64,000 bases of DNA from Nanobdellota archaeon. GTDB lineage: Archaea > Nanobdellota > Nanobdellia > Pacearchaeales > GW2011-AR1. Shown one piece after another: positions 4,627 through 51,255 of this stretch. A program made the translations under genes and the position numbers. The stretch covers positions 41,526 through 105,525 of the forward strand of contig JAHJSH010000029.1 in NCBI GenBank assembly GCA_018830525.1, read 5' to 3'. Under the pieces are notes generated by a model. The model ran no database searches. It was not told where the DNA came from and worked only from the letters and a program-made list of their open reading frames with translations. Numbering within the stretch: the stretch's first letter is position 1; every line of letters begins with the position of its first letter.

Positions 4627-4687
4627 TTTTAGATTATGCAATGACAAGGTCCTTGCGGAGCAAAAATCTAAAGATTTTCGCTGATGG
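4627..4687 (+). promoter_or_regulatory. family-1 leader cassette (hairpin A, hairpin B, start codon); TATA-like TTTAAATA at 4569
   Basis: TTTTAGATTATGCAATGACAAGGTCCTTGCGGAGCAAAAATCTAAAGATTTTCGCTGATGG; 7 related copies in the window. Confidence 0.7.
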
Positions 4688-5052
4688 TTAGGTCGAAGGA
4701 GAATTTGGTTGGAGCGTATGCGTTTTTGATAGGTGTAGTTCTTGCGGTAGTTATCGGATTGTTTAGTGAGCCTCTTCAATCTTCGGGGGGCTGGATCTAT
4801 TCAGTTTTGGTGATAATTGGTTTAATTGTAGGATTCATGAATGTGGGTGATAAAAATTCTATGACTTTCCTTGCTGCAAGTCTTTCTTTGGTGGTTGTTG
4901 GTGCACTTGGCTCGGATCCTCTGAAGTATATTGCCCTGAATAATTATGCCGTCAAGGCATTGAGTAGTATTTTGACATCTCTGTTGGTAATGTTTGTTCC
5001 GGCGACAATTATTGTTGCGTTGAAGACTGTCTTTTCTATGGCGAAGATTTAG
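4684..5052 (+). CDS. small integral membrane protein
   Basis: ATG supplied by the family-1 cassette; several hydrophobic helices. Confidence 0.5.
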   Translation: MVRSKENLVGAYAFLIGVVLAVVIGLFSEPLQSSGGWIYSVLVIIGLIVGFMNVGDKNSMTFLAASLSLVVVGALGSDPLKYIALNNYAVKALSSILTSLLVMFVPATIIVALKTVFSMAKI

Positions 5053-5056
5053 CTCA

Positions 5057-5142
5057 GGGAGATATCTCCCTCAGCTGTGTACCCTCTTATTTAACGATAA
5101 TCTAAAATAAATTTTTCATAGAAAATTTATTTTAGATTATCG
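5057..5142 (+). terminator. two perfect or near-perfect palindromes downstream of the 4684 CDS
   Basis: GGGAGATATCTCCC (5057-5070) and a 22-bp inverted repeat CGATAATCTAAAATAAATTTTT/GAAAATTTATTTTAGATTATCG (5095-5142). Confidence 0.5.
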
Positions 5143-5271
5143 CATGTAAGCTCATAAAATTTCTTGACGCGCTTGTCATTGCCTTGCAACGACCCTATCG
5201 CTAAAATTTTATTCGCGACTTGTGGGCTGGAGTGTAATAATAATTAAAAAGATATTTTGAAGGTATTTATT

Positions 5272-6427: not shown

Positions 6428-6820
6428 CTAGAATCGTTCAATATCACTAGATTTTTGTACTTCAGGTTCTGCTGCACCTTTCTGAATATCAAAAACCTTT
6501 GAAGGTGTTGCGATAACAGTGTTCTCTCCGAATCCTGCAATCTTGCCTTCAAGGGCTTCAACAGTTTTCTTGATCTTCGAGATTGCTCGCTTTAATTCGA
6601 CAACATCCTTTGACTTCAAATGTTTGATATCGATAACTGCGATAGTATATCCTTCTCGGAGTGCATTTAGAATTGGATTTATGTCTTCGTATACCTTTAA
6701 AACAAAAGTTTTTATAAAAATCTTTGAGCTAGATTTTTCTTGTTCTAAATCAATCTCAATGAAATCTGGAGATAAATCTTCATCCCGCCCCATCATCCTT
6801 TTGAATCTGTCAAATACCAT
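6428..6820 (-). CDS. sepF: cell division protein SepF (DUF552)
   Basis: YEDINPILNALREGYTIAVIDIKHLKSKD ... GKIAGFGENTVIATP is typical SepF architecture. Confidence 0.7.
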   Translation of the reverse strand: MVFDRFKRMMGRDEDLSPDFIEIDLEQEKSSSKIFIKTFVLKVYEDINPILNALREGYTIAVIDIKHLKSKDVVELKRAISKIKKTVEALEGKIAGFGENTVIATPSKVFDIQKGAAEPEVQKSSDIERF

Positions 6821-8828: not shown

Positions 8829-8887
8829 ATTAATTTTTTGAAAAGTTAGTTTTTAAATTATTCCTAAAGGATAATTAAAAATTAAAG

Positions 8888-8917
8888 TTTTTATCCTGTA
8901 GGTAGGTCTGGTGACCT
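8888..8917 (+). repeat. family-4 element
   Basis: TTTTTATCCTGTAGGTAGGTCTGGTGACCT; stem AGGTC/GACCT around loop TGGT. Confidence 0.7.
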
Positions 8918-8921
8918 GAAA

Positions 8922-9986: not shown

Positions 9987-10023
9987 AATAATTAGAATCT
10001 GGAAGGCTTTTTAAATTTAGGGT

Positions 10024-10054
10024 TTTTACCCAGTAGGTAGATCTGGTGATCTAA
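10024..10054 (+). repeat. family-4 element
   Basis: TTTTTACCCAGTAGGTAGATCTGGTGATCTA; stem TAGATC/GATCTA around loop TGGT. Confidence 0.75.
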
Positions 10055-10057
10055 GTC

Positions 10058-12289
10058 TTATTCCTCAAAGAATTCTATTCCGAGTTCTCCTTCCATGTCT
10101 TTTCTTCGAGCTTCTTCGATAGGTAATCGTTCTCCTGAAATCTGGGGAGATTTTACTCCGGTGATGATTACCATAACCTTCAGGCTTTTTTCCATGTCTT
10201 TTGAGATTTGGGCTCCAGAGATTAGTTTTGCGTCCGGAGAGAGTTGTTCTCCAATCTTCTGGATTATTTCCTTATATTCATCTAATGCTAAGTCGGTTCC
10301 TCCAATTACGTTCACTAGGGCGCCCCGTGCGTTCTTGATATCTACATCAAGTAGAGGATTATTGAGTGCTTTTTCTACAGCCTCCATTGCCCGGTTGGTT
10401 GAGTCTGATTCTCCCATCCCAATTAATGATACCCCCCCATTCGCCATGACAGCTTTGATATCCGCAAAATCTAGGTTAACTAACCCTGAATTTGTCACCA
10501 ACTCAGTTATTCCTTTTACAGCATTAGTTAGGATTTCGTCTGCAACCCTGAACGCAGTAGGTAATGGTAAGTCTGGTGCTAAGTCTAATAGTTTGTCATT
10601 AGGAATTACAATTAATGTGTCTACGATTCCTTCCATTCGTTCTAGACCTTCCATTGCGTTCTCGATCCTTTTTGCTCCTTCGACTGTGAATGGTAATGTC
10701 ACGACCCCGATAACTAACGCGCCTTGTTTTTTTGCAATTTCTGCTACGACTGGTGCTGCGCCGGTACCCGTATTATGAACTACAAACCCTTCTGCAATAA
10801 AATTGTGGCTTTTATCGACCGTTATATCGTAAACTCCTTCGTCTCCTAATTTTTTGGTGGAGGTTATTCTATTGAATCCGAAGTTTTCAAATATTTCGTG
10901 TTTTTTTCTGCTTCTATATTTATACATAAAGCTTAAACCATTTCTTGTTTTTGGATGGGGTAATTCTTCAAGTAATTCATGGGTTTTGTATATACAAAGA
11001 TTCCACGCAGTGAAATCTTTGGCCATTTTTGAATTTGGTGCTTTGATTGATCTTGTTCTTGATGATACATTGCAAGTTCTAAGCCCGATTTCATCGCATA
11101 GTATTTTGAGTTGTTTGATTAATTTTTCGCTTGACATTTCGAATCTTATTTCTTTTTTTGGAAGACCTGATTTCCCTTTTTGAGTCAGATAGTGACCATC
11201 TGCATCGGCTAAACCAATAATAAATGCCTTCTTTTGTTCTTTTGGTAAGTTGAATACCCAATTCGGAATTTCTTTTTTATTGGCTGGGTGATTTAATCCT
11301 ATTTTGTCAAGAAACTCATAGGCTTTTTTTGAATTGCCATATAGCCAATTTGCAGAGGGAGTGGTTTTCATTTTTATGTTAAAATATTTTTCTATTAGTT
11401 TTATATAATAATTATTTTGTTTCTTGTTTATCGAAGGAGAAAAGTAAATTTTCCATGAGTTTTTTGTTTTACTTATCCAGCCATCCCCCATAAGAAAACC
11501 GAATAGTTTACAAAAGTCTTCATCGCTTTCTCCTAGAGGGATATTTATGGGAGTGCCTTCGATTAAGACATCTCTTAATATAATTACTAAGTCCTCTTTC
11601 TTTAGATTTTTTGCTTGGACCCACTCTAGTCCGAATTTTGAAAAACGGTTACTGCTTAATTTATTTAGTGGTTTAACTTTTAGGAATGGGTGGTCAAATG
11701 AAGCATTGAGTGTTCTATTTTTGGTTTTTATTTCATATACTTTTTTGATGCCGGTTTTCATAGAGGCTATTACTTTTCTTTTTACGAGTTTGTTTTTATA
11801 AAATGTAAATACTTCTTCTCCTTTTTTTATTGAGGAAATTTTTTTGGGACCTTTTATAGTTGAGACTAAAGAGTCCCCCCTTAGACATCCACCACCAAGA
11901 CCACAAGTCACAAAAACTAAATCGGAATTTGATAATTTCTTTTTTATCTCTTGTTGTTGTTCCTTCGCTGCTTCTGCTCCGATTCGTGGATTTGAACCTG
12001 CACCAAGACCTTTAGAAAGTTCTCGTCCGATTAAGATTTTTTGGTCGGCGTTTGTATAAAGAAGGTCTTGTGCGTCGGTATTTATCGCGATAATTTCTCC
12101 ACCCTTGATTCCAACTTCTCGCATTCTGGAAGTTGTGTTTCCTCCAGCACCACCAACACCTACCACTTTTATTCGCGCAGATTGTTTTCTTAGAATTTCC
12201 TCAAGTTCTCTATCAATCTCAGAATTTCCACTGCCCTGCGAAATATGTTGAACCTCAGTCATATGGTTCTCTCTTAATATATCCTCCAT
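10058..12289 (-). CDS. ftsZ: cell division GTPase FtsZ interrupted by an intein
   Basis: N-extein ...KVVGVGGAGGNT...VFVTCGLGGG and C-extein TGTGAAPVVAEIAKK...VIPNDKLL... rejoin into a normal-length FtsZ of about 371 aa. Confidence 0.9.
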   Translation of the reverse strand: MEDILRENHMTEVQHISQGSGNSEIDRELEEILRKQSARIKVVGVGGAGGNTTSRMREVGIKGGEIIAINTDAQDLLYTNADQKILIGRELSKGLGAGSNPRIGAEAAKEQQQEIKKKLSNSDLVFVTCGLGGGCLRGDSLVSTIKGPKKISSIKKGEEVFTFYKNKLVKRKVIASMKTGIKKVYEIKTKNRTLNASFDHPFLKVKPLNKLSSNRFSKFGLEWVQAKNLKKEDLVIILRDVLIEGTPINIPLGESDEDFCKLFGFLMGDGWISKTKNSWKIYFSPSINKKQNNYYIKLIEKYFNIKMKTTPSANWLYGNSKKAYEFLDKIGLNHPANKKEIPNWVFNLPKEQKKAFIIGLADADGHYLTQKGKSGLPKKEIRFEMSSEKLIKQLKILCDEIGLRTCNVSSRTRSIKAPNSKMAKDFTAWNLCIYKTHELLEELPHPKTRNGLSFMYKYRSRKKHEIFENFGFNRITSTKKLGDEGVYDITVDKSHNFIAEGFVVHNTGTGAAPVVAEIAKKQGALVIGVVTLPFTVEGAKRIENAMEGLERMEGIVDTLIVIPNDKLLDLAPDLPLPTAFRVADEILTNAVKGITELVTNSGLVNLDFADIKAVMANGGVSLIGMGESDSTNRAMEAVEKALNNPLLDVDIKNARGALVNVIGGTDLALDEYKEIIQKIGEQLSPDAKLISGAQISKDMEKSLKVMVIITGVKSPQISGERLPIEEARRKDMEGELGIEFFEE
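10772..11887 (-). mobile_element. intein (372 aa) with LAGLIDADG homing-endonuclease domain
   Basis: Starts at Cys (CLRGDSLV), ends VVHN followed by Thr; motifs LFGFLMGDGWI and IIGLADADGHY. Confidence 0.85.
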
Positions 12290-13771: not shown

Positions 13772-14008
13772 GTTTGGTGGGTTCCTTAAAAACCAAGATT
13801 TTTACCCAGTAGGTAACTCTGGTGAGTTAAGTTTGGTGGGTTCCTTAAAAACCAAGATTTTTACCCAGTAGGTAACTCTGGTGAGTTAAGTTTGGTGGGT
13901 TCCTTAAAAACCAAGATTTTTACCCAGTAGGTAAGTCTGGGGAATTAAGTTTGGTGGGTTCCTTAAAAACCAAGATTTTTACCCAGTAGGTAACTCTGGT
14001 GAGTTAAG
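13772..14008 (+). repeat. tandem array 4 x 59 bp, each unit containing one family-4 element
   Basis: GTTTGGTGGGTTCCTTAAAAACCAAGATTTTTACCCAGTAGGTAACTCTGGTGAGTTAA starting at 13772, 13831, 13890 and 13949; the third unit is degenerate. Confidence 0.9.
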
Positions 14009-14011
14009 AGT

Positions 14012-14638: not shown

Positions 14639-14690
14639 AATCTGTAAAAACTAGGGAGATTTATATTTATTTATGTAGTTTGATGTTTAG

Positions 14691-14755
14691 TTAGTCTTAC
14701 GGCGGAGCCGTGTAGTAAATTCGTTCTCGTTGAAACTCGCTGCGAATTTTATGTG
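14691..14755 (+). repeat. family-2 element
   Basis: TTAGTCTTACGGCGGAGCCGTGTAGTAAATTCGTTCTCGTTGAAACTCGCTGCGAATTTTATGTG; near-identical at 18938. Confidence 0.8.
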
Positions 14756-14772: not shown

Positions 14773-14781
14773 TTTTATAAA
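14773..14781 (+). promoter_or_regulatory. TATA box for leaderless aIF5A
   Basis: TTTTATAAA about 25 nt upstream of ATG 14803; the same AAGTTTTATAAA occurs at 19051 and 25631. Confidence 0.55.
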
Positions 14782-14802
14782 TTGATTTTTTTTCTTGTTG
14801 TC

Positions 14803-15192
14803 ATGGTATCTAAAGTTATTGATGCAACGGAGATGCGTGTTGGAACATACATTTTACTCGATGGTGTTGCACATCAAGTCAAAAAGACAGACACTTCTAA
14901 AACTGGTAAGCATGGTCATGCGAAAGTTCGATTTGAGGCAGTTAACATTGTGAGTGGAAAGAAAAAAGTTCAAGTTGTTCCTGGGCATGATAAATTTGAA
15001 GTTCCAATGATTGATAAGAGACAGGCGCAAGTATTGTCCGTTTCTGGAGAAACTGCGAGCATTATGGATAGTGAGAATTATGAGAATTTTGATTTGATAA
15101 TTCCTGGAGAACTACGGGGAACATTGAACGAAGGCGTTACTGTAGAATATTGGAATGTTGAAGGCGATAAATTAATCAAGAAGGTAATGTAA
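14803..15192 (+). CDS. eif5a: translation initiation factor 5A
   Basis: Hypusine loop SKTGKHGHAKV; ATG 14803 preferred over TTG 14782. Confidence 0.9.
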   Translation: MVSKVIDATEMRVGTYILLDGVAHQVKKTDTSKTGKHGHAKVRFEAVNIVSGKKKVQVVPGHDKFEVPMIDKRQAQVLSVSGETASIMDSENYENFDLIIPGELRGTLNEGVTVEYWNVEGDKLIKKVM

Positions 15193-15369: not shown

Positions 15370-15456
15370 ACAGAGATTTTATCGAGGGGTTTGAATAGTT
15401 TTTTAAACTCTTTTCTATAATCATTATTATGATATACAGAATGCCGAAGGCAATAA

Positions 15457-15518
15457 TTTTTAGATTATGCAATGGCAAAGTCCTTGCGAAATTAAAAACT
15501 AAAGTTTTGAATTTATGG
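15457..15518 (+). promoter_or_regulatory. family-1 leader cassette; TATA-like TTTTTTAAA at 15399
   Basis: TTTTAGATTATGCAATGGCAAAGTCCTTGCGAAATTAAAAACTAAAGTTTTGAATTTATGG. Confidence 0.7.
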
Positions 15519-16897
15519 TGAGCTTTTGGGTTTATGATGTTGGTTTTTTGATTCTGTTTAGTGTTTGGGTGGCTTGGTTTTTGCGTTCTAGGAAGAAATC
15601 GTTGAGTCGTGAAGGGATTATTTTTATGTATCGAACTCAATTAGGAGTTAAAGCGATTAAATATATCGGGGATAATTTCAAAAAAATGCTTCATGCGTTG
15701 AAATATGTTATTATCACTGTTGGGCTTGCTCTGATGGGGACGATGATTTGGATGTTATGGACGACGCTTTCGATTTATATTTTGCATCCAGAGATTACGA
15801 AAGTGATTAAGGCACCGCCGATTGCCCCATTGATTCCGTATTTCCCGAAGCTATTTGGGATGCAGAGTTTCTTCCCCCCGTTTTATTTCACTTATTTTAT
15901 TTTAGCTCTTGCGATTGTTGCGATTGTTCATGAGTTTAGCCACGGAATTTTTATGAGGTTGTTTAAGATTAAGATTAAGTCTACAGGGTTAGTTTTTCTT
16001 GGCCCGATTTTAGGAGCTTTTGTTGAGGAAGATCGGAAGGATTTTGAGAAGAAGACGAAAATTGAGCAGATGTCGGTTCTTGGTGCAGGGGTTTTTGCTA
16101 ATGTATTTTTCGCTTTGATATTTTATGGACTTTATGTTGCATTCTTCTTTATTTCATTTAGTGCATCGGGTTACGCGTTTAATGCTTATGCAGATGTTGC
16201 AATTCCTACTGCGAATATAACTGGTATGGAGATTCAAGGGAACCTTACAAGGATAATGACAACGAGTGGAAAAGATTTCTATGCGAATACAGCAATGCTT
16301 GAACAGATTAATCTTAGCTCATATGAATTAATCCCGGTTTATTATGATGCGCCCGCAGTAAAAATTAGGATGGAAGGTGCAATTGTGCAGATGAATGATG
16401 CGAAGATTCGAGAACAAGAAGATATTGTTACATTTATGCAAAACACTGAACCGGGAGATATGGTTAAAGTTATTACCGAAGACGAAGGGGAACAAATAGA
16501 ATATAATATTGTGCTTGGCGAGCATCCTTTAGGAAATGGACTTGGGTATTTAGGAATAGGTTATGGGCAGGTCGCGCCTAAGGGATTTATCCAAAATGCT
16601 TTGATATTTTTTATGTCGTTCAAAGATCGTTCAACTTATTATGCGCCGACTTGGGATGGGGAGTTTGTTTATTTCTTCTACCATTTACTTTGGTGGATTA
16701 TGATTATCAACTTACTCGTTGCTATTTTTAATATGTTGCCGCTTGGAATGCTTGATGGCGGGAGGTTCTTCTATCTGACAATTTGGGGAATTACTCGTTC
16801 GGAAAAAGTGGGAAAAATTGCGTCTAAGGTGATGAAGTACTTTATCTTGGCAGTCTTCGTGTTGTTGATGTATTTCTGGTTCATTAGGATTATTTAA
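15515..16897 (+). CDS. site-2 protease family (M50) membrane metalloprotease
   Basis: HEFSHG zinc motif and NMLPLGMLDGG motif; polytopic. Confidence 0.85.
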   Translation: MVSFWVYDVGFLILFSVWVAWFLRSRKKSLSREGIIFMYRTQLGVKAIKYIGDNFKKMLHALKYVIITVGLALMGTMIWMLWTTLSIYILHPEITKVIKAPPIAPLIPYFPKLFGMQSFFPPFYFTYFILALAIVAIVHEFSHGIFMRLFKIKIKSTGLVFLGPILGAFVEEDRKDFEKKTKIEQMSVLGAGVFANVFFALIFYGLYVAFFFISFSASGYAFNAYADVAIPTANITGMEIQGNLTRIMTTSGKDFYANTAMLEQINLSSYELIPVYYDAPAVKIRMEGAIVQMNDAKIREQEDIVTFMQNTEPGDMVKVITEDEGEQIEYNIVLGEHPLGNGLGYLGIGYGQVAPKGFIQNALIFFMSFKDRSTYYAPTWDGEFVYFFYHLLWWIMIINLLVAIFNMLPLGMLDGGRFFYLTIWGITRSEKVGKIASKVMKYFILAVFVLLMYFWFIRII

Positions 16898-16921: not shown

Positions 16922-17998
16922 ATGAAAAAAGTTAAGGATACTTTGAAAAAAATGGGGGAGAAAAGTAATTCAGGAATTAAAAAAGCTGGTTTAGAATTAG
17001 CTAAGGAAAAAATGACCAAAGAAGGTTATGGGATGGTCGGGGATCATAGTGCCGTAAAAGTATGTCTTTGGACTAAGCATTCAATTCGTGGAGATAGGGG
17101 TTGTTGGAAAGAAAAGTTTTATGGAATTAGCTCTGCCGGGTGTTGTCAAATGACGCCGAGTTTATTTCATTGTGAGAACAAATGTCTTCACTGCTGGAGA
17201 GACTTAACGTATACATTTAATAAAAGTATTGAGAATCCTGATGACCCTAAAAAAATTCTTGATGGAATTGTTGCAGTTCGGAAAGATTTGTTGATGGGAT
17301 TTAAGGGTCGTGAGGGAATTGATATGAAGAAGTTTGAGGAAGCACTTGAGCCAAAGTTGTATACGCTGAGTTTGTCTGGAGAGCCTACGCTTTATCCCCG
17401 GCTTGGCGAGATGTTTGCGGAGATTCGGAAGCGAGGCGCTGTTAGTTTTTTAGTTACAAATGGTTTGAATCCAGAAGTAATTAGAAATCTTTCTACTCTT
17501 CCGACACAGATTACTGTTTCTACAAATGCTCCGAATGAGAAATTGTTTTTGAAGTGGCATCGATCTACGAAGAAAGAGGCTTGGAATGTTTTTAATGAAA
17601 CGCTTGATGTTATTCGAGGATTGGGAAGGGCGCCCTCGGGCATACCCTCTGAGGAGGGCAAAGTTAGGCGGGTGATTAGATTGACTTTGGTTGATAAGGG
17701 AAAAGAAGGGAAATTTAAAGATATGACGAATATGACTGAGGAGAATGTAGGAGAGTATTGCGATTTGATTAGGAAGGCGGAGCCTGATTTTGTTCATGTT
17801 AAGGGATATAAGTCTGTTGGGTATGCTCGTCCTCGGATGGGTTATGATAATCAGCCTTGGTTTGAAGCGGTTAAGGAATATGCTTTGAAGATTGAGAAAA
17901 AGTTAGAGGATTATGAGGTTGCGGCGGAAGATGAGAGATGTTGTGTTGTTATGTTGAAGCGGAAAGGTGGAATAGATTTGAAGATTGATAAGGTTTAG
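16922..17998 (+). CDS. taw1: tRNA 4-demethylwyosine synthase (TYW1/Taw1), radical SAM
   Basis: CENKCLHC cluster motif; SLSGEPTLYP; VKGYKSVGYAR. Confidence 0.8.
   Translation: MKKVKDTLKKMGEKSNSGIKKAGLELAKEKMTKEGYGMVGDHSAVKVCLWTKHSIRGDRGCWKEKFYGISSAGCCQMTPSLFHCENKCLHCWRDLTYTFNKSIENPDDPKKILDGIVAVRKDLLMGFKGREGIDMKKFEEALEPKLYTLSLSGEPTLYPRLGEMFAEIRKRGAVSFLVTNGLNPEVIRNLSTLPTQITVSTNAPNEKLFLKWHRSTKKEAWNVFNETLDVIRGLGRAPSGIPSEEGKVRRVIRLTLVDKGKEGKFKDMTNMTEENVGEYCDLIRKAEPDFVHVKGYKSVGYARPRMGYDNQPWFEAVKEYALKIEKKLEDYEVAAEDERCCVVMLKRKGGIDLKIDKV
17630..17663 (+). repeat. family-3 GC-rich two-hairpin module in-frame in TYW1
   Basis: GCGCCCTCGGGCATACCCTCTGAGGAGGGCAAAG, encoding RAPSGIPSEEGK. Confidence 0.75.
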
Positions 17999-18818: not shown

Positions 18819-18937
18819 TGCCTAGGACACCTCCGGTTTCCTAAGGCTTCACCTTCCCGCTGAATTAGTCCACTACGCTCGGTATACATAGTTTAAGAAA
18901 ATATTTTTAGTTTATAATGATTTATGTGATGGTTTTA

Positions 18938-19062
18938 TTAGTCTTATGGCAGAGCCACGCGAGTAATTCGTTCTCGTTGAAACTTGCTGCGAATTTTATG
19001 TGATTTGTTATAAGGTCGCCTTCGGGCATACCCCTGCTGCGAGCAAGGGCAAGTTTTATAAA
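18938..19062 (+). repeat. mosaic element: family-2, then family-3 module, then TATA box, upstream of rpl1
   Basis: TTAGTCTTATGGCAGAGCCACGCGAGTAATTCGTTCTCGTTGAAACTTGCTGCGAATTTTATGTG ... GTCGCCTTCGGGCATACCCCTGCTGCGAGCAAGGGCAAGTTTTATAAA. Confidence 0.8.
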
Positions 19063-21125: not shown

Positions 21126-21500
21126 ATGATGGAGGTAGTTGGGGGGAGAAGTTTTGGGAATGTTTTTAAAGTTAATCAGTCTATTTGTTTTATGAAAAGA
21201 AGAAGTCATCGAAGACCTCGGAGGCACAACAATCCCCACCGGAATCATTCGAAACTATTAAAGATTAGTTTTTTCACGAGAAGGCATCCTCTGGCAACAG
21301 GAGTTTTACTTATTATAGCATCTTTACTTACATTCAGATTCTCTCCAGAAATCGGGGAACTAATAGGCTTTGAGGCTGGATTTTGGATATTTCTTCTTGC
21401 ATTAGGATTAGGTATTGCGGGGATATTGGTCTTAGTGGGTTGGTGGAGAAATAATATTTCTAATTTTAATGTCCAAGCTAATCTTAAGTGGAAACATTGA
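21126..21500 (+). CDS. hypothetical membrane protein
   Basis: ORF with basic N-terminus and 2-3 hydrophobic helices; start uncertain. Confidence 0.35.
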   Translation: MMEVVGGRSFGNVFKVNQSICFMKRRSHRRPRRHNNPHRNHSKLLKISFFTRRHPLATGVLLIIASLLTFRFSPEIGELIGFEAGFWIFLLALGLGIAGILVLVGWWRNNISNFNVQANLKWKH

Positions 21501-25552: not shown

Positions 25553-25596
25553 ACAATTATAGCGATTAAGAATTTATAAATCTGTGTAATTCTTGG

Positions 25597-35978: not shown

Positions 35979-36778
35979 TGGCACATATTAAGAAAACACA
36001 AATGCCCAAGTCGTGGCCAGTCCCGAGAAAAGGTAGGGGAAAGAGATTTGTAGCTGTGCCAAGCCATGCGACTAGTAAGGGAATTTCTTTATTGTTCTTG
36101 CTTCGAGATGTTTTAAAAATTGTTAATACTCGGAAGGAAGCAAGGCATATGACACTTAATGGGATGGTTAAAATTAATAATGTTACTCGGAAAGATGAGA
36201 ATTTTCCAGTTCAAGTTTTTGATACAGTTAACTTGTCCTCAAAGGATGACTCCTCAAAGGATGACTCCTCAAAGGATGACTCCTCAAAGGATGACTCCTC
36301 AAAGGATGACTCCTCAAAGGATGACTCCTCAAAGGATGACTCTGGTGAGCCTTCTGGTGAGCCTTCTGGTGAGCCCGAAAAGACTAAGTTGAATTATAAG
36401 TTGGAGATTATTAATAAGAAGTTTAGTTTGGTGGAGATTTCGGCTAAGGAAGCAGAGACTAAGATTGTTAAGATTGTTGGAAAGAGAACAATTGGAAAAG
36501 ATAAGATTCAGATGAACCTTGATGATGGACAGAATGTTTTGACTAAAGAGAAATTCTCCATCGGGGATTCTGTTGTTTTGAACACTAAGGAGACTAAGAT
36601 TGTTAAGATTCTTCCCTTGAAGGAAGGGGCTAAGATTGAAGTTGTTCTTGGAAAGCATGCAGGTGAGAAGGGCGAACTTGTTGGATTCGATGAATTGGTT
36701 CGGGGAAGAAATTATAAAATTAAATTAGAAGATAGGACTGTGAGTTTGCCTTATAAGACTATCTTGGTGATTGCATAA
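35978..36778 (+). CDS. rps4e: ribosomal protein S4e with internal low-complexity repeat insert
   Basis: MAHIKKTQMPKSWPVPRKGRGKRFVAVPSH. Confidence 0.9.
   Translation: MAHIKKTQMPKSWPVPRKGRGKRFVAVPSHATSKGISLLFLLRDVLKIVNTRKEARHMTLNGMVKINNVTRKDENFPVQVFDTVNLSSKDDSSKDDSSKDDSSKDDSSKDDSSKDDSSKDDSGEPSGEPSGEPEKTKLNYKLEIINKKFSLVEISAKEAETKIVKIVGKRTIGKDKIQMNLDDGQNVLTKEKFSIGDSVVLNTKETKIVKILPLKEGAKIEVVLGKHAGEKGELVGFDELVRGRNYKIKLEDRTVSLPYKTILVIA
36236..36376 (+). repeat. perfect 7 x 15 bp plus 3 x 12 bp tandem repeats in-frame in rps4e
   Basis: TCCTCAAAGGATGAC x7 (SSKDD) then TCTGGTGAGCCT x3 (SGEP). Confidence 0.95.
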
Positions 36779-39670: not shown

Positions 39671-39764
39671 AATGATACATAAAATATTATGCAATGACAA
39701 AGTCCTTGCGGATCACCCAGTAGGTGATCTGGTGATCAAAAAACTTGGAGGTTTTTGCTAATGG
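39668..39764 (+). promoter_or_regulatory. long family-1 cassette with embedded family-4 element, filling the rpl19e-rpl18 spacer
   Basis: Near-identical to 33276-33372. Confidence 0.8.
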
Positions 39765-40274: not shown

Positions 40275-41246
40275 ATGGCAGTTACTGGGGAGGATAAGAA
40301 AGAGAAGCAGGCAGAGGAATTGGCTGAGAAAGAAATGGAGAAAGATTTAGACGCAGCACCCAAGGATGTACACCAAGGAGGTGCGAGAACCTCTTCGAAG
40401 CCTCCGGCCCAGATGGCATCCACTGACGCGGACAAGGTCGGCAAAGAACTATTGAAAGAAATGGAGAAGGTAGTTGAAGCTGAAGAGAAAAAGAAAGATA
40501 AAAAAATATCTAAGGAATTTGATGCTAAGGCTAAGACTGATGAAGGTCGAGGAGAATGGAAGAGAGAATCTCGGGAAGACAGATTTGCTAGGGAGGCTCA
40601 GGAGAAATTGGATAATTGGGTACCGAGAACTCAGTTAGGAAAAGATGTTCGAGCTGGGAAGGTTAAGAGTATTGAGGAAGTTTTTGATGCAGGACAAAAA
40701 ATATTGGAGCCAGAAATTGTTGACCTTTTGGTTAAGGGTTTGCATACAGATACTTTATTTATTGGACAAGCAAAAGGAAAGTTTGGTGGGGGAAAACGAA
40801 GAGCATTCAGACAAACTCAAAAGAAAACTAAGGAAGGAAATGTTTTGACTTTTGGAGTTATGGCTGTTGTCGGAGATGGACACGGACATGTTGGTATTGG
40901 ATATGGGCGGGCTGCTGAAACCTTGCCGGCGAAAGAGAAAGCAGTTAGAAAAGCTAAGTTAAATATTGTTAAGATTCCTCGGGGATGTGCAAGTTATGAT
41001 TGTTCATGTGATGAGGACCATAGTATTCCTATCGCGGTTGAGGGAAAATGCTCTTCAGTAATAGTTAAGTTAATGCCGGCACCCCAGGGAACTGGTTTAG
41101 TTATTGGAAATGAAATGAAGAAGATTTTAAGGGCAGTTGGAATTAAAGACGTTTATGGAAAATGTTCTGGGAAAGTTAAAACTACATTTAATACTGCTAA
41201 GGCTTGTATGGCTGCTTTGAATAAATTAGGAGAGATTCAATATTAA
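40275..41246 (+). CDS. rps5: ribosomal protein S5 with about 100-aa N-terminal extension
   Basis: WVPRTQLGKDVRAGKV ... VVGDGHGHVGIGYGRA. Confidence 0.9.
   Translation: MAVTGEDKKEKQAEELAEKEMEKDLDAAPKDVHQGGARTSSKPPAQMASTDADKVGKELLKEMEKVVEAEEKKKDKKISKEFDAKAKTDEGRGEWKRESREDRFAREAQEKLDNWVPRTQLGKDVRAGKVKSIEEVFDAGQKILEPEIVDLLVKGLHTDTLFIGQAKGKFGGGKRRAFRQTQKKTKEGNVLTFGVMAVVGDGHGHVGIGYGRAAETLPAKEKAVRKAKLNIVKIPRGCASYDCSCDEDHSIPIAVEGKCSSVIVKLMPAPQGTGLVIGNEMKKILRAVGIKDVYGKCSGKVKTTFNTAKACMAALNKLGEIQY
40356..40446 (+). repeat. long family-3 variant inside the rps5 5' extension
   Basis: GCACCCAAGGATGTACACCAAGGAGGTGCGAGAACCTCTTCGAAGCCTCCGGCCCAG...GGTCGGCAAAG; about 90 percent identical by eye to 34716-34807. 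Confidence 0.85.
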
Positions 41247-43203: not shown

Positions 43204-43338
43204 AGATTTTTCGACATAACAATCTTTATAAAACAAATTTATCTTCATTAAATCATGATAAATAGTATAAGGGGACATTAGATTAAGATTGTTTAACGAT
43301 AGAATCGTTAATTATCAAAAATCTAAAGATTTTTTCTT

Positions 43339-44706
43339 ATGGGATTGCGAGAATTATTGCATAATTTGCCGGAGGTTCGAGGGCCGACGGAGAAGAAAGT
43401 TAGTTTCAATGTTAAGCTTAAATGGACTTTAGTGATTCTTGTTGCGTTTTTTGTTCTTGCTAATATTCCTTTATTTGGTATCGCAGGAGGTTCTCTTGAG
43501 AGATTTGAGTATTTGGCGATTCTGATGGGTACTTCGTTCGGTTCGATTATCTCGTTGGGTATCGGTCCAATCGTGATGGCTTCTATTATTCTGCAGTTAC
43601 TTAATGGTGCGCAGATTTTGAACATTGATACTAATACTGATGAGGGTAAAAAGTTTTTTCAGGGAATGCAGAAGCTATTGGCGTTTGCGTTTGTAATTTT
43701 TGAAGCAATGGTTTATGTTTTGATGAAAGGTATTCAGGCACAGCCGGGGTTTGTCGGGATGGTTATCTTACAGTTGTGTCTTGGTGGTTTCCTAATTATC
43801 TTTATGGATGAAGTTGTTCAGAAATGGGGATTCGGTAGTGGTGTTTCATTATTCATTGCAGGTGGTATCGGTTGGAGGTTATTTACTCAGCTATTCCAAT
43901 TCATCGGGACTACTGGAGCTTTTGAACCAGTGGGGAAAGTTTGGGCGTTGATCTATGCTGTAACTCAAGGGCTGGGGGTAGATGCAGCTTGGGCTATTTT
44001 CCCGATTCTTGTTACCGTCGCTTTATTCCTAGCAGTAGTATTTGCGCAGAGCTTGAAAGTTGAAATCCCGTTAGCATTTGATAGGGTTCGGGGTCATTCA
44101 GTTAAATGGCCATTACAGTTTTTCTATGCAGGAGTTATCCCAGTAATTTTGGTTTCGGCTTTGGCCGCGAACATACAGTTGTTTGCATCGCTTTTGCAAA
44201 ATTGGATGGGCCATGCAACTTTCCTTGGAGGGTTTGGTTCTACAGGTACTCCGATTTCGGGTTTAGCATATTGGATTAATTCTACTCCGTTATTGGAGAT
44301 GATTATTAAGGGAAGTTTCAGGTGGATTTATGCATTCCAGGCATTTTTCCATGTTCTATTTTATGTAGCGTTCTCAGTTTTATTTGCATTCTTTTGGGTT
44401 GGAACTTCTGGACAAGACGCTCGAAGTCAGGCTAAGAGGATTATGAGTTCAGGTATGAGTATGCCCGGGTTTAGAAAAGATGAAAGGGTTTTGGAATCGA
44501 TTTTGAAGAGATACGTTACTCCGCTGACAGTGATGGGTGGTGTGGCGATTGGTATTTTAGCTTCGGTAGCGAACCTTCTTGGAGCTTTAGTTGGTGGAAC
44601 TGCGATTCTTTTAGTAGTTATGATTCTTTATCAGTTATACCAGAACATTGCACAGCAACATGCGGTTGATATGAATCCTGCACTAAAAGGATTCTTTGGT
44701 GCTTAG
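43339..44706 (+). CDS. secY: preprotein translocase SecY
   Basis: 10-TM protein; LGIGPIVMASIILQLL; follows the r-protein cluster. Confidence 0.93.
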   Translation: MGLRELLHNLPEVRGPTEKKVSFNVKLKWTLVILVAFFVLANIPLFGIAGGSLERFEYLAILMGTSFGSIISLGIGPIVMASIILQLLNGAQILNIDTNTDEGKKFFQGMQKLLAFAFVIFEAMVYVLMKGIQAQPGFVGMVILQLCLGGFLIIFMDEVVQKWGFGSGVSLFIAGGIGWRLFTQLFQFIGTTGAFEPVGKVWALIYAVTQGLGVDAAWAIFPILVTVALFLAVVFAQSLKVEIPLAFDRVRGHSVKWPLQFFYAGVIPVILVSALAANIQLFASLLQNWMGHATFLGGFGSTGTPISGLAYWINSTPLLEMIIKGSFRWIYAFQAFFHVLFYVAFSVLFAFFWVGTSGQDARSQAKRIMSSGMSMPGFRKDERVLESILKRYVTPLTVMGGVAIGILASVANLLGALVGGTAILLVVMILYQLYQNIAQQHAVDMNPALKGFFGA

Positions 44707-46333: not shown

Positions 46334-47188
46334 ATGATTGAGATGTTGATAAAACCAAAGCGGGCTGAAAGGCGGCCTTGGGAAATGTTTTTTGTGGGGT
46401 TGTTCTATGCTTCGGTTTCCTTACTTCTAGTAACATTCGTTTTTGGTAAAGATTCTATCTTGAAGGAAGGTTCGGGACTTTTAGTGGTTATCTTTACTGT
46501 TATCGCATGTTTGCCTTTTATGTATTATATTATTAAGTTAGAAGAGGGTAAGGATGTGCAGATTAATGATTCAGGGAGATTAATTAAAGAGCATTCTAAA
46601 GCAATTCATGCATTGGTGTGGCTGTTCTTAGGATTTGTCGTTGCATTTTCTTTTTGGTATTTAGTGTTGCCAGGGTCTGCAGGACAAAATTTTAATTTTC
46701 AAATAAAAACTTTCTGTGCGATTAATAGTCCCTCGAGTTATGGGAATTGTATTGAACAGCATGGAATCCCTGTCGGAACTGGGGCGGCGACTAGTGGGGA
46801 TTTCTTTTTACGAATATTTTCTAATAATGTCTATGTCTTGATATTTACGATTTTATTTTCGTTAGCGTTGGGGGCAGGGGCGATTTTTATCCTGGTTTGG
46901 AATGCTTCAGTAATTGCGGCAGCCATAGGAATCTTTGCAAAGGGAGAATTGTCGGGACTGGGGACTGGACTAATGAGATATATGATTCATGGAATCCCGG
47001 AGATTAGCGCGTATTTTGTCGGGGCATTGGCTGGGGGAATAGTTTCGGTAGCGATTATTAGAAGAGATCTTCATGGGGAAGGAACTTGGAAAATTTTGCA
47101 GGATTCTTTGATAATGGTAATTATTGCGATAGTCATTCTAATTATTGCAGCATTAATGGAAGTTTATTTGACTCCCCTTCTTTTTTAG
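46334..47188 (+). CDS. SpoIIM/DUF95-like membrane protein
   Basis: Polytopic; HGIPEISAYFVGALAGG motif. Confidence 0.55.
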   Translation: MIEMLIKPKRAERRPWEMFFVGLFYASVSLLLVTFVFGKDSILKEGSGLLVVIFTVIACLPFMYYIIKLEEGKDVQINDSGRLIKEHSKAIHALVWLFLGFVVAFSFWYLVLPGSAGQNFNFQIKTFCAINSPSSYGNCIEQHGIPVGTGAATSGDFFLRIFSNNVYVLIFTILFSLALGAGAIFILVWNASVIAAAIGIFAKGELSGLGTGLMRYMIHGIPEISAYFVGALAGGIVSVAIIRRDLHGEGTWKILQDSLIMVIIAIVILIIAALMEVYLTPLLF

Positions 47189-47323
47189 TTGCTGCGAATT
47201 TAGAGAGTGATAAATTATGCAATGGCAAAGCCCTTGCGGATCACCCAGTAGGTGATCTGGTGATCAAAAAATCTAAAGATTTTTGCTAATGGAAGTTTAT
47301 TTGACTCCTATTCTATTTTAGTT
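47154..47323 (+). repeat. 37-bp imperfect direct repeat of the gene tail flanking a long family-1 cassette
   Basis: TAATGGAAGTTTATTTGACTCC... at 47154 and 47287 (34/37 identical by my count); long family-1 cassette at 47211-47292. Confidence 0.8.
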
Positions 47324-47391
47324 AGTCTTGTGGCAGAGCCACGCGGGAAAAAAGTAGATATCTTTTTAAGGAGTAATTTATAAGATAAATC

Positions 47392-48378: not shown

Positions 48379-48412
48379 GAATGTTTTTAAATGGATGATA
48401 ATATAAGTTTTC

Positions 48413-51169
48413 ATGGATGTTGCAGTTTACTTTATACTAGCAATTATAGCAGGGATAATTTATGCTATTATGCTCAAGAGAGAATTGGAAGGACAAAAAA
48501 AGCTTTCTTTAAAGGATTTTTTTATTACTACTCCTAAGATTTTCAAGGATAAGCGAGTTCAATGGGCTTTTGTAGGAATAATCCTTTTGTTTGTTTTATT
48601 TACAACTTCATCTATCCGACTTTCTAATTGGGATTTGTTGACTGATCAAACGACTGGTGAAAAAATTCCATTGGCGTTGGACCCATTTTATTTTTTAAGG
48701 TTATCGGAAACTATTGTTGAGCAAGGAAGTTTACCTGAAGTTGATGTTATGAGGTATCCTTCAGCAAATGCAACATTTAGTCCAGAAATTATGCCTCAGG
48801 TTGTTGTCTGGATGTATCGGGCAGGAAACATTTTTGGAGATTATACTCTTCGAGAGGTTAATGTTTTTTCTCCGGTCGCATTTTATTTTGTTGGTTTGAT
48901 AATTTTCTTCTTTTTGATTTATGTTTTGACAAATTCAAAGACTATTGCAACTCTTAGTAGTATATTTTTAGCTTATGCTCCTGCATATCTGTATAGAACA
49001 ATGGCAGGGTTTTCGGATCATGAAGCTATTGGTATGGTAGCTCTTTTTTCAGCAATGTTAGTTTTTAGTTTGTCATTAAAGTGGATAAACAAGCATAAAG
49101 GTCTCTTGGGAGCCGGGCTTTTTGGATTAGGTTCCGCGTTCTTGTCTACCCTAACAATTGCTAGTTGGGGAGGAGTTGCTAAATTATTATTTATGATGTT
49201 CTCTCTAGGTTTTTTAACTTTTTGGTTATTGAGGGTTAGGGAAAATAAAGAATTTGTTAAACGTGGACTTTTGTTTTATTCCACTTGGGTAGTTTTTAGT
49301 TTTCTCTTTGGACCAATATTAGGATATGGTGTTAAGTATATTATTGAGGTATATATGTTATCCTCTGCCGGTTTAATTAGTTTGTTTGTACTCGGGTTTA
49401 TATTTATTGATTCGGGTTTCCTTCTTTGGGGAGATAGAATCTCTTTCATTAAAAAGAAATATCGTGCAGCCTATAGTTTCGCAGGGATATTTGCATTGGG
49501 AGTTGTTGGGCTTACAATATTGGGAAGGAGTATTACATCAGTTCTTGCAGAAGTTTGGTTAAGTATTTTCCATCCGTGGGGGGTCGGAAGGGTTGGACTT
49601 ACGGTTGCTGAAAATGCTCAACCATATCTTTTAGATTGGATTAGCCAGAGTGGAAAAGTTATTTTTTGGATGGCATTTATAGGAATGTTATTGATTGGAT
49701 TTGAGTTTGCAAGAAGAGTAGAAAATAAAAAACTAAAAGTTCTTGGAGTTTTCTTTTGGATAGTGATGGTTTGCAGTTCCTTGTTTAGCCGAATCTCTGT
49801 GGCTTCAATTATGAATGGGACTAATTTCATCAGTCAAGTAGTATATGCTGGAGGGTTATTAATTTCCTTAGGATTTTTTGTCTGGGCTTATTTTAATGGA
49901 AAGCCAAATAGTTCAACTAGACCTGAAATTATTTTTATAGCTGCCTGGGCATTTGTTGTATTACTTTCTGGGCGTGCAGCGCAAAGAATATTTTTTGCAA
50001 TCGCCCCGTTTATGTGTTTTATGGCTGCATATTTTATAGTAAAATTATTTAATTATTATCGAGAAAATAAGGAAGAAATCCTTAAAATTGTATTAGTTAT
50101 TGCAATCATAGTCTCTATATTTTTAGCTGCAAGAAGTGTCTATGATTCTAATGAGGGTATAAAAATACAAGCTTCACAACAAGGTCCTTCAGCACATTAT
50201 CAATGGCAGGCAGCGATGGGGTGGGTTAGAGAAAATACTGGCGAGGAGTCTATATTTATGCATTGGTGGGATTATGGTTACTGGGTAGAGTATCTTGGAG
50301 AACGTAGGACCCTTACTGATGGGGGACATGTGGTTACTCATTGGGACCATTTTATTGGAAGGTATGTCTTAACGACCCCTTACCCAGAGACTGCTTATAG
50401 TTTCATGAAAACTCATAATGTTTCTTATTTATTGATTGACCCCACAGATTTAGGAAAATATGGGGCATATAGTCGGATTGGAAGCGGAGACGATGGGACT
50501 GATAGATATGATGCAATTCCAGTGATTCCATTAGATCCGCGTCAGACAGTAGAATCTGCCGATAAAATTACAATGGTTTATTCTGGAGGAATGGTCCTTT
50601 TTGAAGATATTGAATATGTTACAGATACCGGTACTATCTTTTTGCCTGCGGGGAAAGCAGGTCTCGGAGGGATTATATGGAGTCTTAATAATGAAAATAA
50701 CACAACTAATATTAACCAACCAATAGGGGTTTATTTCTATAATAATCAAAGATATGATATTCCTATTAGGTATGGGCATACGGCGGGAGGACTTATTGAT
50801 TTTGGGGGCGGTCTTGATGCAGTCATTAAAATAATCCCCTCCTTTGATGGCAGGAGTATTAATCAATGGGGGGCGGCTATTTATCTTTCTCCAAAAGTCT
50901 CTAAGGGATTATTCGCTCAACTATATTTATTGGATGATGCTTTTGGAAACTATGGTGATATGAAAATCGCGCATAAACAAGATGATGGTTTGGTTGCGAG
51001 TATTAAGAGTCAGGGTGGCGCAGTGGGAGACTTTATTTATTATGGAGGTTTCCGAGGTCCAATAAAAATCTGGGAAATTAGTTATCCTGAAGGGACCCTT
51101 GCGAGAGAAGAATTTTTTAGGACTTCAGGGGCTTGGGCAGAATTTGATGATTTGGAGTTTGTAGCTTAA
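48413..51169 (+). CDS. aglB: oligosaccharyltransferase AglB (STT3)
   Basis: 13-TM N-terminal domain and WWDYGYW motif. Confidence 0.9.
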   Translation: MDVAVYFILAIIAGIIYAIMLKRELEGQKKLSLKDFFITTPKIFKDKRVQWAFVGIILLFVLFTTSSIRLSNWDLLTDQTTGEKIPLALDPFYFLRLSETIVEQGSLPEVDVMRYPSANATFSPEIMPQVVVWMYRAGNIFGDYTLREVNVFSPVAFYFVGLIIFFFLIYVLTNSKTIATLSSIFLAYAPAYLYRTMAGFSDHEAIGMVALFSAMLVFSLSLKWINKHKGLLGAGLFGLGSAFLSTLTIASWGGVAKLLFMMFSLGFLTFWLLRVRENKEFVKRGLLFYSTWVVFSFLFGPILGYGVKYIIEVYMLSSAGLISLFVLGFIFIDSGFLLWGDRISFIKKKYRAAYSFAGIFALGVVGLTILGRSITSVLAEVWLSIFHPWGVGRVGLTVAENAQPYLLDWISQSGKVIFWMAFIGMLLIGFEFARRVENKKLKVLGVFFWIVMVCSSLFSRISVASIMNGTNFISQVVYAGGLLISLGFFVWAYFNGKPNSSTRPEIIFIAAWAFVVLLSGRAAQRIFFAIAPFMCFMAAYFIVKLFNYYRENKEEILKIVLVIAIIVSIFLAARSVYDSNEGIKIQASQQGPSAHYQWQAAMGWVRENTGEESIFMHWWDYGYWVEYLGERRTLTDGGHVVTHWDHFIGRYVLTTPYPETAYSFMKTHNVSYLLIDPTDLGKYGAYSRIGSGDDGTDRYDAIPVIPLDPRQTVESADKITMVYSGGMVLFEDIEYVTDTGTIFLPAGKAGLGGIIWSLNNENNTTNINQPIGVYFYNNQRYDIPIRYGHTAGGLIDFGGGLDAVIKIIPSFDGRSINQWGAAIYLSPKVSKGLFAQLYLLDDAFGNYGDMKIAHKQDDGLVASIKSQGGAVGDFIYYGGFRGPIKIWEISYPEGTLAREEFFRTSGAWAEFDDLEFVA

Positions 51170-51194
51170 TGGTATATAAATTTAGGGCATTAGA

Positions 51195-51255
51195 TTTTAG
51201 ATTATGCAATGGCAAAGCCCTTGCGGATCAAAAAATTGAAGTTTTTTGCTAATGG
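51195..51255 (+). promoter_or_regulatory. family-1 leader cassette
   Basis: TTTTAGATTATGCAATGGCAAAGCCCTTGCGGATCAAAAAATTGAAGTTTTTTGCTAATGG. Confidence 0.7.

Follow-up and report, generated by a model that had tools for sequence, protein, structure and literature searches.

Strict coupling of translation termination and reinitiation at ATGA and TGATG overlaps has been established experimentally for gene pairs in Haloferax volcanii and E. coli (Huber et al. 2019, PMC6728339). The Rickettsia palindromic elements (RPEs), in turn, are palindromic mobile repeats that lie in frame within protein-coding genes (Ogata et al. 2000, 2002, reviewed in PMC10969869). Here we describe an element that shares features with both. 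It is a cassette of 50–110 nucleotides (nt), repeated at gene starts in a 64,000-nt stretch of a Nanobdellota archaeon genome (assembly GCA_018830525.1, contig JAHJSH010000029.1, positions 41,526 to 105,525 of the forward strand; hereafter, the window). A typical copy carries two hairpins, A and B, and a short open reading frame (mini-ORF) that closes at the start codon of the gene downstream, which we call the host gene. With a probability of about 0.5, we read the cassette as a lineage-specific leader that spreads by duplication and would hand ribosomes on to its host gene by termination–reinitiation.

As in the coupled gene pairs (PMC6728339), the stop of the mini-ORF overlaps or abuts the host ATG (TAATG, TGATG, ATGA, or ATGGTGA), cassettes inside operons appear to be coupled themselves to the stop of the gene upstream, and a GGAG resembling a Shine–Dalgarno (SD) sequence is present in some copies only. 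The differences are that the upstream partner is no gene but a repeated cassette of 20–41 codons standing before dozens of unrelated genes, that two conserved hairpins lie inside it, and that the coupling here is predicted from sequence. The likeness to RPEs is that of short, dispersed, palindrome-bearing repeats in reduced genomes, whose frame stays largely open and codes for a peptide segment that is conserved; one cassette in a relative (L005) is fused in frame to its host protein, whereas the other copies are separate mini-ORFs. RPEs, however, lie inside host ORFs, while the cassette is a separate mini-ORF before the start codon with a stop/start overlap. It is also smaller (50–110 nt against about 150 bp) and archaeal.

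REP/REPIN repeats with their RAYT proteins and the PATEs of IS200/IS605 (PMC8049555, PMC3184786) are likewise short multicopy hairpin repeats with tandem arrangements, mismatched stem bases, and presence/absence differences between relatives. REPs are extragenic, though, sit mostly at gene 3′ ends in either orientation, and show neither a tie to start codons nor target duplication, whereas the cassette has gene-start duplications and hairpins that are unrelated to each other in sequence; no RAYT or Y1 gene was seen in the window. [quoted passage not shown] Like MITEs, it is short (50–110 nt), codes for no transposase, is multicopy (eight copies in 64 kb), and has empty and filled syntenic sites, but it has no terminal inverted repeats and no target duplication of fixed length. 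Unlike in mobile promoters, the part shared between copies is an apparently translated leader, the TATA box is already present at empty sites, and three window copies (c4, c5, and c7) have no promoter. The cassette lacks features that define MITEs, REP/PATE repeats, and mobile promoters, and is therefore not a member of any of these groups. Our literature searches returned no match to the cassette sequences or peptide, and the literature found on leaderless upstream ORFs, repeats, and RNA motifs in DPANN archaea does not describe the element. It looks like a start-codon leader cassette for which the literature searched offers no described precedent.

The window is recognizably archaeal, with the ribosomal protein gene order L3-L4-L23-L2-S19-L22-S3 ... 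L19e-L18-S5-L30-L15-SecY, genes for SUI1, S4e, and aIF5A, and TATA-box promoters. A preliminary description had reported seven copies of a cassette ending in a start codon, and these were recovered in full. The core ATGCAATGRCAARGYCCTTGCG is common to seven plus-strand copies, with 0 expected, and a 22-nt core, ATGCAATGRCAAAGYCCTTGCG, occurs with at most one mismatch at 4636, 15467, 25702, 33297, 39689, 47217, and 51204, always on the plus strand, with 0 matches in 100 shuffles. A longer 31-mer of the core matched five of the seven. The start positions given earlier hold overall, except that the second copy begins at 15458 rather than 15457. Aligned, the seven copies show three parts: first a conserved block, TTTTAGATTATGC...CTTGCG, then a hairpin of an A-run and a T-run, and at the end (G)CTAATGG or TTTATGG. 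When 56 copies without gaps were used to build a covariance model, the model found all seven again and added an eighth, diverged copy at 43280–43342, before secY (41 bits, E about 7e-8).

The genes that follow the seven copies are, in window order, those of a membrane protein, a Peptidase_M50 (S2P) protease, a hypothetical protein, S3, L18, a 10-codon ORF, and UDP-GlcNAc 2-epimerase, which bears out the identities first proposed. Pfam confirms Peptidase_M50, S3, L18, and UDP-GlcNAc 2-epimerase as hosts and secY as the host of the extra copy; the small membrane protein downstream of c1 has no Pfam match. The copies, and one empty site to which we return below, are listed here, with classes referring to the three C-terminal classes of mini-ORF and X to an insert described below.

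4598 to 4686, plus strand: copy c1; TATA box 4569–4576; entry ATG 4598; mini-ORF 4598–4684, encoding MIHMCTNERSFRLCNDKVLAEQKSKDFR; hairpin A 4638–4656; hairpin B 4658–4683; the stop, TGA 4682–4684, overlaps the membrane protein ATG at 4684.

14774 to 14815, plus strand: empty aIF5A site; promoter TTTTATAAAT, followed 20 nt later by leaderless ATGGTATCTAAA; ATG 14804.

15429 to 15521, plus strand: copy c2 (class 2); TATA box 15399–15408; mini-ORF 15429–15521; hairpin A (G-T variant) 15469–15487; hairpin B 15489–15514; S2P protease ATG 15515, with the mini-ORF stop being the TGA within ATGGTGA.

25664 to 25759, plus strand: copy c3 (class 2); TATA box 25634–25644; mini-ORF 25664–25759; hairpin A 25704–25722; hairpin B 25724–25749; the TGA stop overlaps a second ATG at 25756 (ATGA), and ATGAAAAAA stands both at the mini-ORF start and at the gene start.

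33280 to 33371, plus strand: copy c4 (class 1 with a 24-nt X insert); entry ATG 1 nt past the L22 stop (33276–33278); mini-ORF 33280–33369, encoding MIHKILCNDKVLADHPVGDLVIKKLGGFC; hairpin A 33299–33317; X about 33319–33342; hairpin B 33343–33368, with loop GGAGG; TAATG overlaps the S3 ATG at 33369.

39672 to 39763, plus strand: copy c5; entry ATG 1 nt past the L19e stop; mini-ORF 39672–39761; hairpin A 39691–39709; X about 39711–39734; hairpin B 39735–39760; TAATG overlaps the L18 ATG at 39761.

43255 to 43341, plus strand: the eighth, diverged copy, before secY; TATA box 43225–43233; entry ATG 43255, opening an ORF of only 8 codons; hairpin A site 43293–43311, replaced by the perfect hairpin TTAACGAT-AGA-ATCGTTAA; canonical hairpin B 43313–43338; secY ATG 43339.

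47154 to 47323, plus strand: copy c6 with its flanking duplication; last 10 codons and stop of a SpoIIM-like gene (47154–47190), then a 24-nt spacer; core at 47215, lacking an entry ATG in frame; hairpin A (G-C variant) 47219–47237; X about 47239–47262; hairpin B 47263–47288; TAATG 47287–47291 leads into a second copy of the 10 codons (47287–47323).

51169 to 51254, plus strand: copy c7 (class 1); entry ATG overlapping the upstream AglB/STT3 stop (TAATG 51167–51171); mini-ORF 51169–51252, encoding MVYKFRALDFRLCNGKALADQKIEVFC; hairpin A (G-C variant) 51206–51224; hairpin B 51226–51251; TAATG overlaps the UDP-GlcNAc 2-epimerase ATG at 51252.

For c3, the second ATG is likely the true start of the host gene. 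The 24-nt in-frame insert is present in c4, c5, and c6 and absent from the other window copies. The 10-codon ORF behind c6 arose as a duplicate, 37 nt long, of sequence at the 3′ end of the upstream SpoIIM-like gene (47154–47190 versus 47287–47323).

Related copies were sought with the exact pattern in one genome per species, covering 185,579 species. The core was found in seven archaeal metagenome-assembled genomes (MAGs) only, labeled Nanoarchaeota, Pacearchaeota, Woesearchaeota, or “archaeon,” and a slightly degenerate pattern matched 66 metagenome stretches. The environments of origin include Antarctic-lake and groundwater samples (Ga0075122, Ga0307928, and Ga0180009). Together, these sources yielded 82 distinct copies after removal of duplicates; related loci are given L numbers below. 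All 82 are co-oriented with a downstream ATG and end there, the copies at the SpoIIM-tail locus being the exception to a position exactly at a gene's start codon. The hosts, assigned by N-terminal sequences and by tblastn with the window proteins, are mainly housekeeping genes of many kinds, among them aIF5A, L2, P0, S4e, S7, S4, S9, L15, L30e, and thermosome, and further PCNA, Kae1, NrdR, ribonucleotide reductase, and SecY. The preliminary description had suggested a leader linking ribosomal protein, envelope, and glycosylation genes; such a single regulon is hypothetical. The cassette is conserved across one clade of DPANN archaea (the Woese-, Pace-, and Nanoarchaeota MAGs), and its hairpins covary there. 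No cassette match was found in viral contigs. Rfam recognized no family: the whole window at gathering thresholds returned two tRNAs only, and one cassette at permissive thresholds gave a best subthreshold match of 12.3 bits (E 8.6).

The preliminary description placed the cassette in the 5′ untranslated region, and this had to be revised. The ATGAT at the expected transcript start opens a frame, and this frame continues across hairpins A and B until it meets a stop that overlaps the ATG of the host gene. Across the collection, the frame is intact, from an in-frame ATG to a stop at most 12 nt from the host ATG, in 51 of 71 copies, including 33/39 in class 1 and 5/6 in class 3. A stop lies that close in 66 of 72 copies, and 35 of the 39 class 1 copies have TAATG or TGATG. 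The resulting mini-ORFs are 20–41 codons long (MIHKILCNDKVLADHPVGDLVIKK is an example of the peptide).

Length variation respects this frame. The distance from entry ATG to core is a multiple of three in 46 of 59 copies, spread over eight length classes, and the core-to-ATG length comes to 63, 87, or 111 nt in 62 of 72 if the stretch is taken to begin 9 nt upstream of the core and to end 1 nt past the ATG. Four insertion events, together affecting at least 12 copies, are all stop-free multiples of three: one placed the 24-nt X after hairpin A, one placed it in the hairpin A loop, a third added 24 nt to hairpin B, and a fourth added 45 nt to the hairpin A loop. In the variable 5′ part, stops occur at 0.028 per codon in frame versus 0.157 and 0.139 in the other frames, although the conserved start motif exaggerates this contrast to some extent. 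In L012, L037, and L074, whose TAATG has mutated, a replacement stop is found at +1 or +4. For class 2 and class 3 copies, only host sequence can supply the stop, and ATGG is followed directly by a TRR stop in 15 of 33 copies, compared with 10.5% of background ORF starts. In the fused copy L005 (Pacearchaeota MAG, about 6448–6503, minus strand), a deletion of 29 nt, bounded by two GGAT repeats, has removed hairpin B along with the host ATG, and the mini-ORF continues in frame into the host protein (..LCNDKVLADWRADFFEARYHL..), whose L023 orthologue begins MDYMGDFMEARYHL. The only upstream start left to that host is therefore the cassette's own. Translation through the hairpins is strongly indicated by these patterns in the main class of copies, though it would not be universal.

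We considered a functional microprotein and rejected it by eye, as the three C-terminal classes share no motif and the covarying stem changes turn D/V into G/A. A concatenated peptide query against the protein database returned only seven unnamed tiny ORFs without Pfam domains; the peptide is unannotated and is not a known protein.

Two contexts precede the entry ATG. The TATA boxes first noted for c1, c2, and c3, with ATGAT following, are present as described: in all four window copies with their own promoter (these three and the secY copy), the 3′ end of the TATA box lies 19–21 nt before the entry ATG. In about 20 own-promoter copies at related loci, the box is roughly 20–23 nt upstream, as read off ATG-anchored sequences. 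Archaeal TATA boxes at this spacing put the transcript start at or beside the A of the ATG, making such transcripts leaderless. In the second context, seen in c4, c5, and c7, the stop of the preceding gene overlaps the entry ATG or lies 0–4 nt before it. A regular-expression screen with an 18–27 nt window assigned 18 intact copies to a TATA box and 20 to a position directly after an upstream ORF stop. Copies c4, c5, c6, and c7 lack their own promoter: three of them (c4, c5, and c7) lie within operons, and c6 follows the stop of the SpoIIM-like gene. The entry ATG often lies within ATGATAYATAAAAT (read in the frame TTA-TGC-AAT) and is followed by a short A/U-rich stretch that often duplicates the host gene's first codons.

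Hairpin A has the consensus GCAATGRC-NAN-GYCCTTGC, with 8 bp and a 3-nt loop, and is nearly invariant in the main family. One pair varies and was left free in the search pattern. The alignment of the seven window copies reproduces the series described at first (A-T in four copies, G-T in one, and G-C in two, plus a T/C mismatch), and the 82 copies hold 61 A-T, 18 G-C, and 3 G-T pairs at this position with 0 nonpairs. In three diverged copies, the stem has been wholly swapped for another perfect 8-bp stem with a 3-nt loop at the same place; besides the secY copy, these are L051 (GAATTGGC-AGA-GCCAATTC) and L050 (GTAATAGC-TAT-GCTATTAC). Such copies were reachable by the covariance model only and thus provide less biased evidence. 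Hairpin A could serve as an operator to which a protein binds, could affect RNA stability, or could be required for the copying itself.

Hairpin B is unrelated to hairpin A in sequence. The different cores noted for it earlier are real, but the helix is longer than was noted, comprising 11 A/U-rich pairs that end 1 nt before the ATG. These pairs join alignment columns 34–44 with 49–59, the last one at column 59 and the host ATG in columns 60–62. Overall, 86% of cells are paired, changes on both sides are found at 8 of the 11 pairs, and covariation is 0.247 compared with 0.097 in shuffles (0/500 reaching it) and at most 0.119 in slid controls. The proposal of a shared gene-start leader module with covarying hairpins is thus supported. 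The hairpin B loop of many class 1 copies contains GGAG, about 9–10 nt upstream of the ATG. Several other structures were dropped on inspection by eye: a C/D-box small RNA (there is no D box), a kink-turn, and a bulge-helix-bulge splice site. A mimic of the 16S rRNA 3′ end was also rejected, as GGATCACC is confined to cassettes that contain X and is not kept by the related X modules at gene 3′ ends.

These hairpins would also be expected of a noncoding structured RNA leader or operator, in which hairpin A binds one trans-acting protein or RNA and hairpin B gates the start codon. The hosts would then form a posttranscriptional regulon of housekeeping genes, and the open frame would be a by-product of a leaderless AUG and common descent. 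Copies with a closed ORF do indeed retain both hairpins and show compensatory changes in them, hairpin A is exact in most covariance-model matches (about 7 of some 95 are diverged), class 2 frames are near chance, and the hosts are mostly translation, replication, and secretion genes. A purely noncoding element, on the other hand, would not lead one to expect the in-frame insertions, the compensating stops, or the class 1 stop/start overlap, and the diverged copies whose hairpin A is wholly different in sequence, present in the same genomes, speak against one binder that recognizes a specific sequence. Given also that Rfam gave no match and that no candidate factor was identified, we consider this explanation doubtful.

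The X module that is inserted into some cassettes also occurs elsewhere. At 8875–8921, 10010–10056, and 13786–14009, an A-run/T-run hairpin is followed by a module of the form ACCCAGTAGGTA-NNNTC-TGGT-GANNN whose stem covaries (AGGTC/GACCT, AGATC/GATCT, and AACTC/GAGTT). These sites are on the plus strand, directly past the stops of the minus-strand genes for Spt5/NusG, FtsZ, and adenylate kinase, and the third is a four-copy tandem array with a 59-nt period. In a form 1 nt shorter, the module is the in-frame 24-nt insert of c4–c6. In relatives, it is also found upstream of aIF5A promoters (L001, L021, and L051).

Hairpin B has the A-run/stem/T-run form of a terminator, and a similar hairpin with an X module stands right after the Spt5, FtsZ, and adenylate kinase stops, where a terminator is expected. 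This brings to mind a transcription attenuator, in which hairpin B and its T-run terminate transcription and translation of a leader peptide picks between structures. Minimum free energy (MFE) folds did suggest pairing of a 5′ segment (UUUUAGAUU) with the 5′ arm of hairpin B, but this antiterminator-like helix (columns 1–8 with 37–44) is paired in only 52% of cells, its covariation is no better than in shuffles or slid controls, and short forms of the cassette lack the UUUUAGAUU segment altogether. The class 2 T-run is only 3–5 T long, the peptide has no run of regulatory codons, and a bacterial-type terminator scan did not flag hairpin B. An attenuator is therefore very improbable.

Comparison of syntenic junctions points to spread of the cassette between gene starts. 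L019 carries the same ribosomal protein operon as the window, with about 80–84% nucleotide identity over the aligned blocks. The L22/S3 junction holds c4 in the window and a plain TAATG in L019, and L19e/L18 holds c5 in the window and a short plain junction in L019; L24/S4e has the reverse arrangement, with a cassette in L019 and TAATG in the window. At L23/L2, cassettes are present in L002, L030, and L069, and L019 has an empty TAATG junction. At that junction, the window holds an unrelated 114-amino-acid ORF (31161–31505), which has no Pfam match and begins TAAAGATGAT like the cassettes. Copies c4 and c5 differ at 1 position in 97 nt, so that at least one of them must be a recent copy.

The aIF5A gene provides an empty and a filled state of one promoter. 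In the window it is empty, reading TTTTATAAAT-N20-ATGGTATCTAAAGTT, while in L001, L021, L051, and L050 a cassette stands right after the first codons. In L001, the same promoter leads into ATGGTA-[cassette]-ATGGTA, and L050 has ATGGTATCTAAA-[cassette]-ATGGTATCTAAA, a 12-nt repeat. The same TATA promoter is thus found at the empty window site and at the filled L001 and L050 sites, so the promoter is not part of the repeated unit, which begins at or after the entry ATG. The earlier proposal of a mobile promoter-leader can accordingly be kept as to mobility and duplication, given the empty and filled sites and the near-identical copies, but not as to the promoter.

Many copies repeat their host gene's first 6–13 nt. 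At least 8 nt of the gene start recur at the mini-ORF start in 12 of 70 copies (L038, for example, repeats 13 nt, and L026 and L047 repeat 9 nt each), compared with a mean of 1.1 and a maximum of 6 in 2000 permutations. The direct repeats vary in length (3–4, 6, 7, 8, 9, 12, and 13 nt), reaching 33–37 nt at the SpoIIM locus (c6, L010, and L032), where the duplicated target is the last ten codons. The duplicates at this locus are identical or near-identical within a genome and differ between genomes, and L032 has three tandem units. The 3′ junction of the cassette is always (TA)ATGG, while the 5′ boundary varies and shows short microhomologies. Tandem arrays take two forms, one fused in frame (66 or 90 nt) and one joined by stop/start overlap (83 or 86 nt). 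No terminal inverted repeats were found when the first 20 nt of four representative cassettes were compared with the reverse complement of their last 20; the fraction of shuffles at least as good was 0.50–0.98. A fixed 3′ junction, a variable 5′ junction, and duplications of variable length do not fit cut-and-paste or HUH transposition. We infer that the pattern fits copy-choice or target-primed synthesis, or repeated microhomology-mediated recombination.

The copied piece at c6 also carries donor-flank sequence related to another repeat family: GCTGCGAATTT, a piece of that family, is the spacer before c6. Members of this family (GTTTAGTTAGTCTT-hairpin-...GCTGCGAATTTTATGTG, and AAGGNCGCCTTCGGGCATACC) lie at 14685–14755, 18932–19033, 47317–47350, 17626–17647, and 25594–25615. 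They have no Rfam match, and the promoters that they precede are those of the genes for aIF5A, L1, and a GT4 glycosyltransferase and that of the c3 gene.

Mobility raises the alternative of a selfish palindromic repeat of the REP/REPIN or IS200/IS605-PATE kind, whose single-stranded DNA hairpins would be recognized by an HUH (Y1) transposase encoded elsewhere. Open frames and stop/start overlaps would then mark the surviving insertions, those that do not block host translation. The presence/absence differences between relatives, the tandem arrays, and the two near-identical copies are all in keeping with this, as are the conserved mismatched base in hairpin A, the lack of preference for G-U pairs over A-C, and the related hairpin module X at gene 3′ ends and inside cassettes, on the same strand throughout this window. 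The cassette has two different hairpins, however, rather than matching end hairpins, and its duplications vary (3–13 nt, and 33–37 nt at one locus) along with its 5′ boundary, whereas HUH enzymes make no duplication. Its copies are all in sense orientation and, apart from the SpoIIM-tail locus, exactly at start codons, and the 50 window ORFs scanned contain no transposase domain. We regard a repeat of this kind as unlikely.

Under the termination–reinitiation reading, each copy would separate the point where ribosomes enter from the ATG of its host, which in most cases is a housekeeping gene. A ribosome would start at the entry AUG, which as a 5′-terminal codon would need no SD sequence, or would reinitiate there after an upstream gene. 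It would then translate the 20–41-codon mini-ORF through both hairpins, melting them, terminate at the stop overlapping the host AUG, and reinitiate at that AUG. Without its passage, hairpin B would bury the start region (26 nt before the ATG). The position of the loop GGAG, about 9–10 nt before the ATG, suggests de novo SD-dependent initiation as an alternative or additional route. Spread would occur by copying of the cassette into another gene start, with the 3′ junction fixed at (TA)ATGG and a variable, microhomology-mediated 5′ junction that duplicates the first nucleotides of the target gene. A fuller version, which we put forward only tentatively, is a self-propagating translated leader that would copy itself into the first codons of other genes with an ATGG-fixed 3′ junction and a variable 5′ junction, for instance by copy-choice or target-primed synthesis. 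Its stop/start hand-on would keep the hosts alive, and its shared hairpin A would give dozens of housekeeping genes a common posttranscriptional control.

Several points weigh against this reading. The positions of transcript 5′ ends and the translation of the mini-ORF are both predictions. The copies share descent, so that their counts are not numbers of independent events, and they were gathered with an exact 24-mer, which makes the invariance of hairpin A partly a matter of ascertainment. Folding of single sequences is only modestly better than for shuffles (z −0.35 to −2.27), and the structural case consequently rests on covariation. G-U and A-C mismatches are equally frequent (10 versus 9), so RNA is not distinguishable from single-stranded DNA or from the antisense strand on this ground. 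Intact frames in class 2 (9/20) are near chance. In the three copies with a replaced hairpin A, including the window secY copy, the frame closes after 8–13 codons and the hairpins are kept, so translation through the hairpins is not required everywhere. As for spread, the direct repeats could reflect short-patch gene conversion instead of insertion, and the Pfam scan of 50 window ORFs, with no Y1_Tnp or other transposase domain among them, identified no copying enzyme.

The window is unusually rich in short tandem duplications and holds other repeats apart from the cassettes. The segments 34716–34805 and 40356–40445, 90 nt long and 92% identical, lie in frame in the N-terminal extensions of S17 and S5; by inspection, they are G+C-rich for this genome, and they encode a 30-amino-acid insert, APK(G/D)VHQGGARTSS.... 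This segment may represent a second kind of in-frame repeat inside ribosomal protein genes. Within S4e, a 15-nt unit (TCCTCAAAGGATGAC) is repeated in tandem over about 137 nt (36221–36357) as an in-frame pentapeptide repeat, and the region is unaligned in L019 (blastn blocks break at 36234–36377). FtsZ (10058–12289, minus strand) is split by an intein with LAGLIDADG endonuclease domains. The tRNA-Ser gene at 21745–21825 (21493–21825, minus strand) is preceded by two 119-nt tandem units repeating its 3′ part; repeated tRNA 3′ parts are a pattern often left by integrating elements. There are also a perfect 38-nt direct tandem repeat at 511–586 and a 68-nt repeat (93% identical, spaced 75 nt) at 1326–1468.

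DPANN archaea are uncultured, have tiny genomes, and their gene expression is almost unknown. If our reading is true, the cassette would be a major lineage-specific feature of translation control in this group, standing before the genes for S3, L18, L2, P0, S7, aIF5A, PCNA, thermosome, SecY, NrdR, and further core proteins. It would combine leaderless initiation with termination–reinitiation and offers a directly testable case of the two together. It may also represent a repeat specialized for start codons, in which insertion would be made harmless by an entry AUG that needs no SD, a frame kept open, and the overlap of stop and start. Finally, the fixed 3′ and variable 5′ junctions prompt one to ask how sequences this short can spread when no transposase is recognizable.

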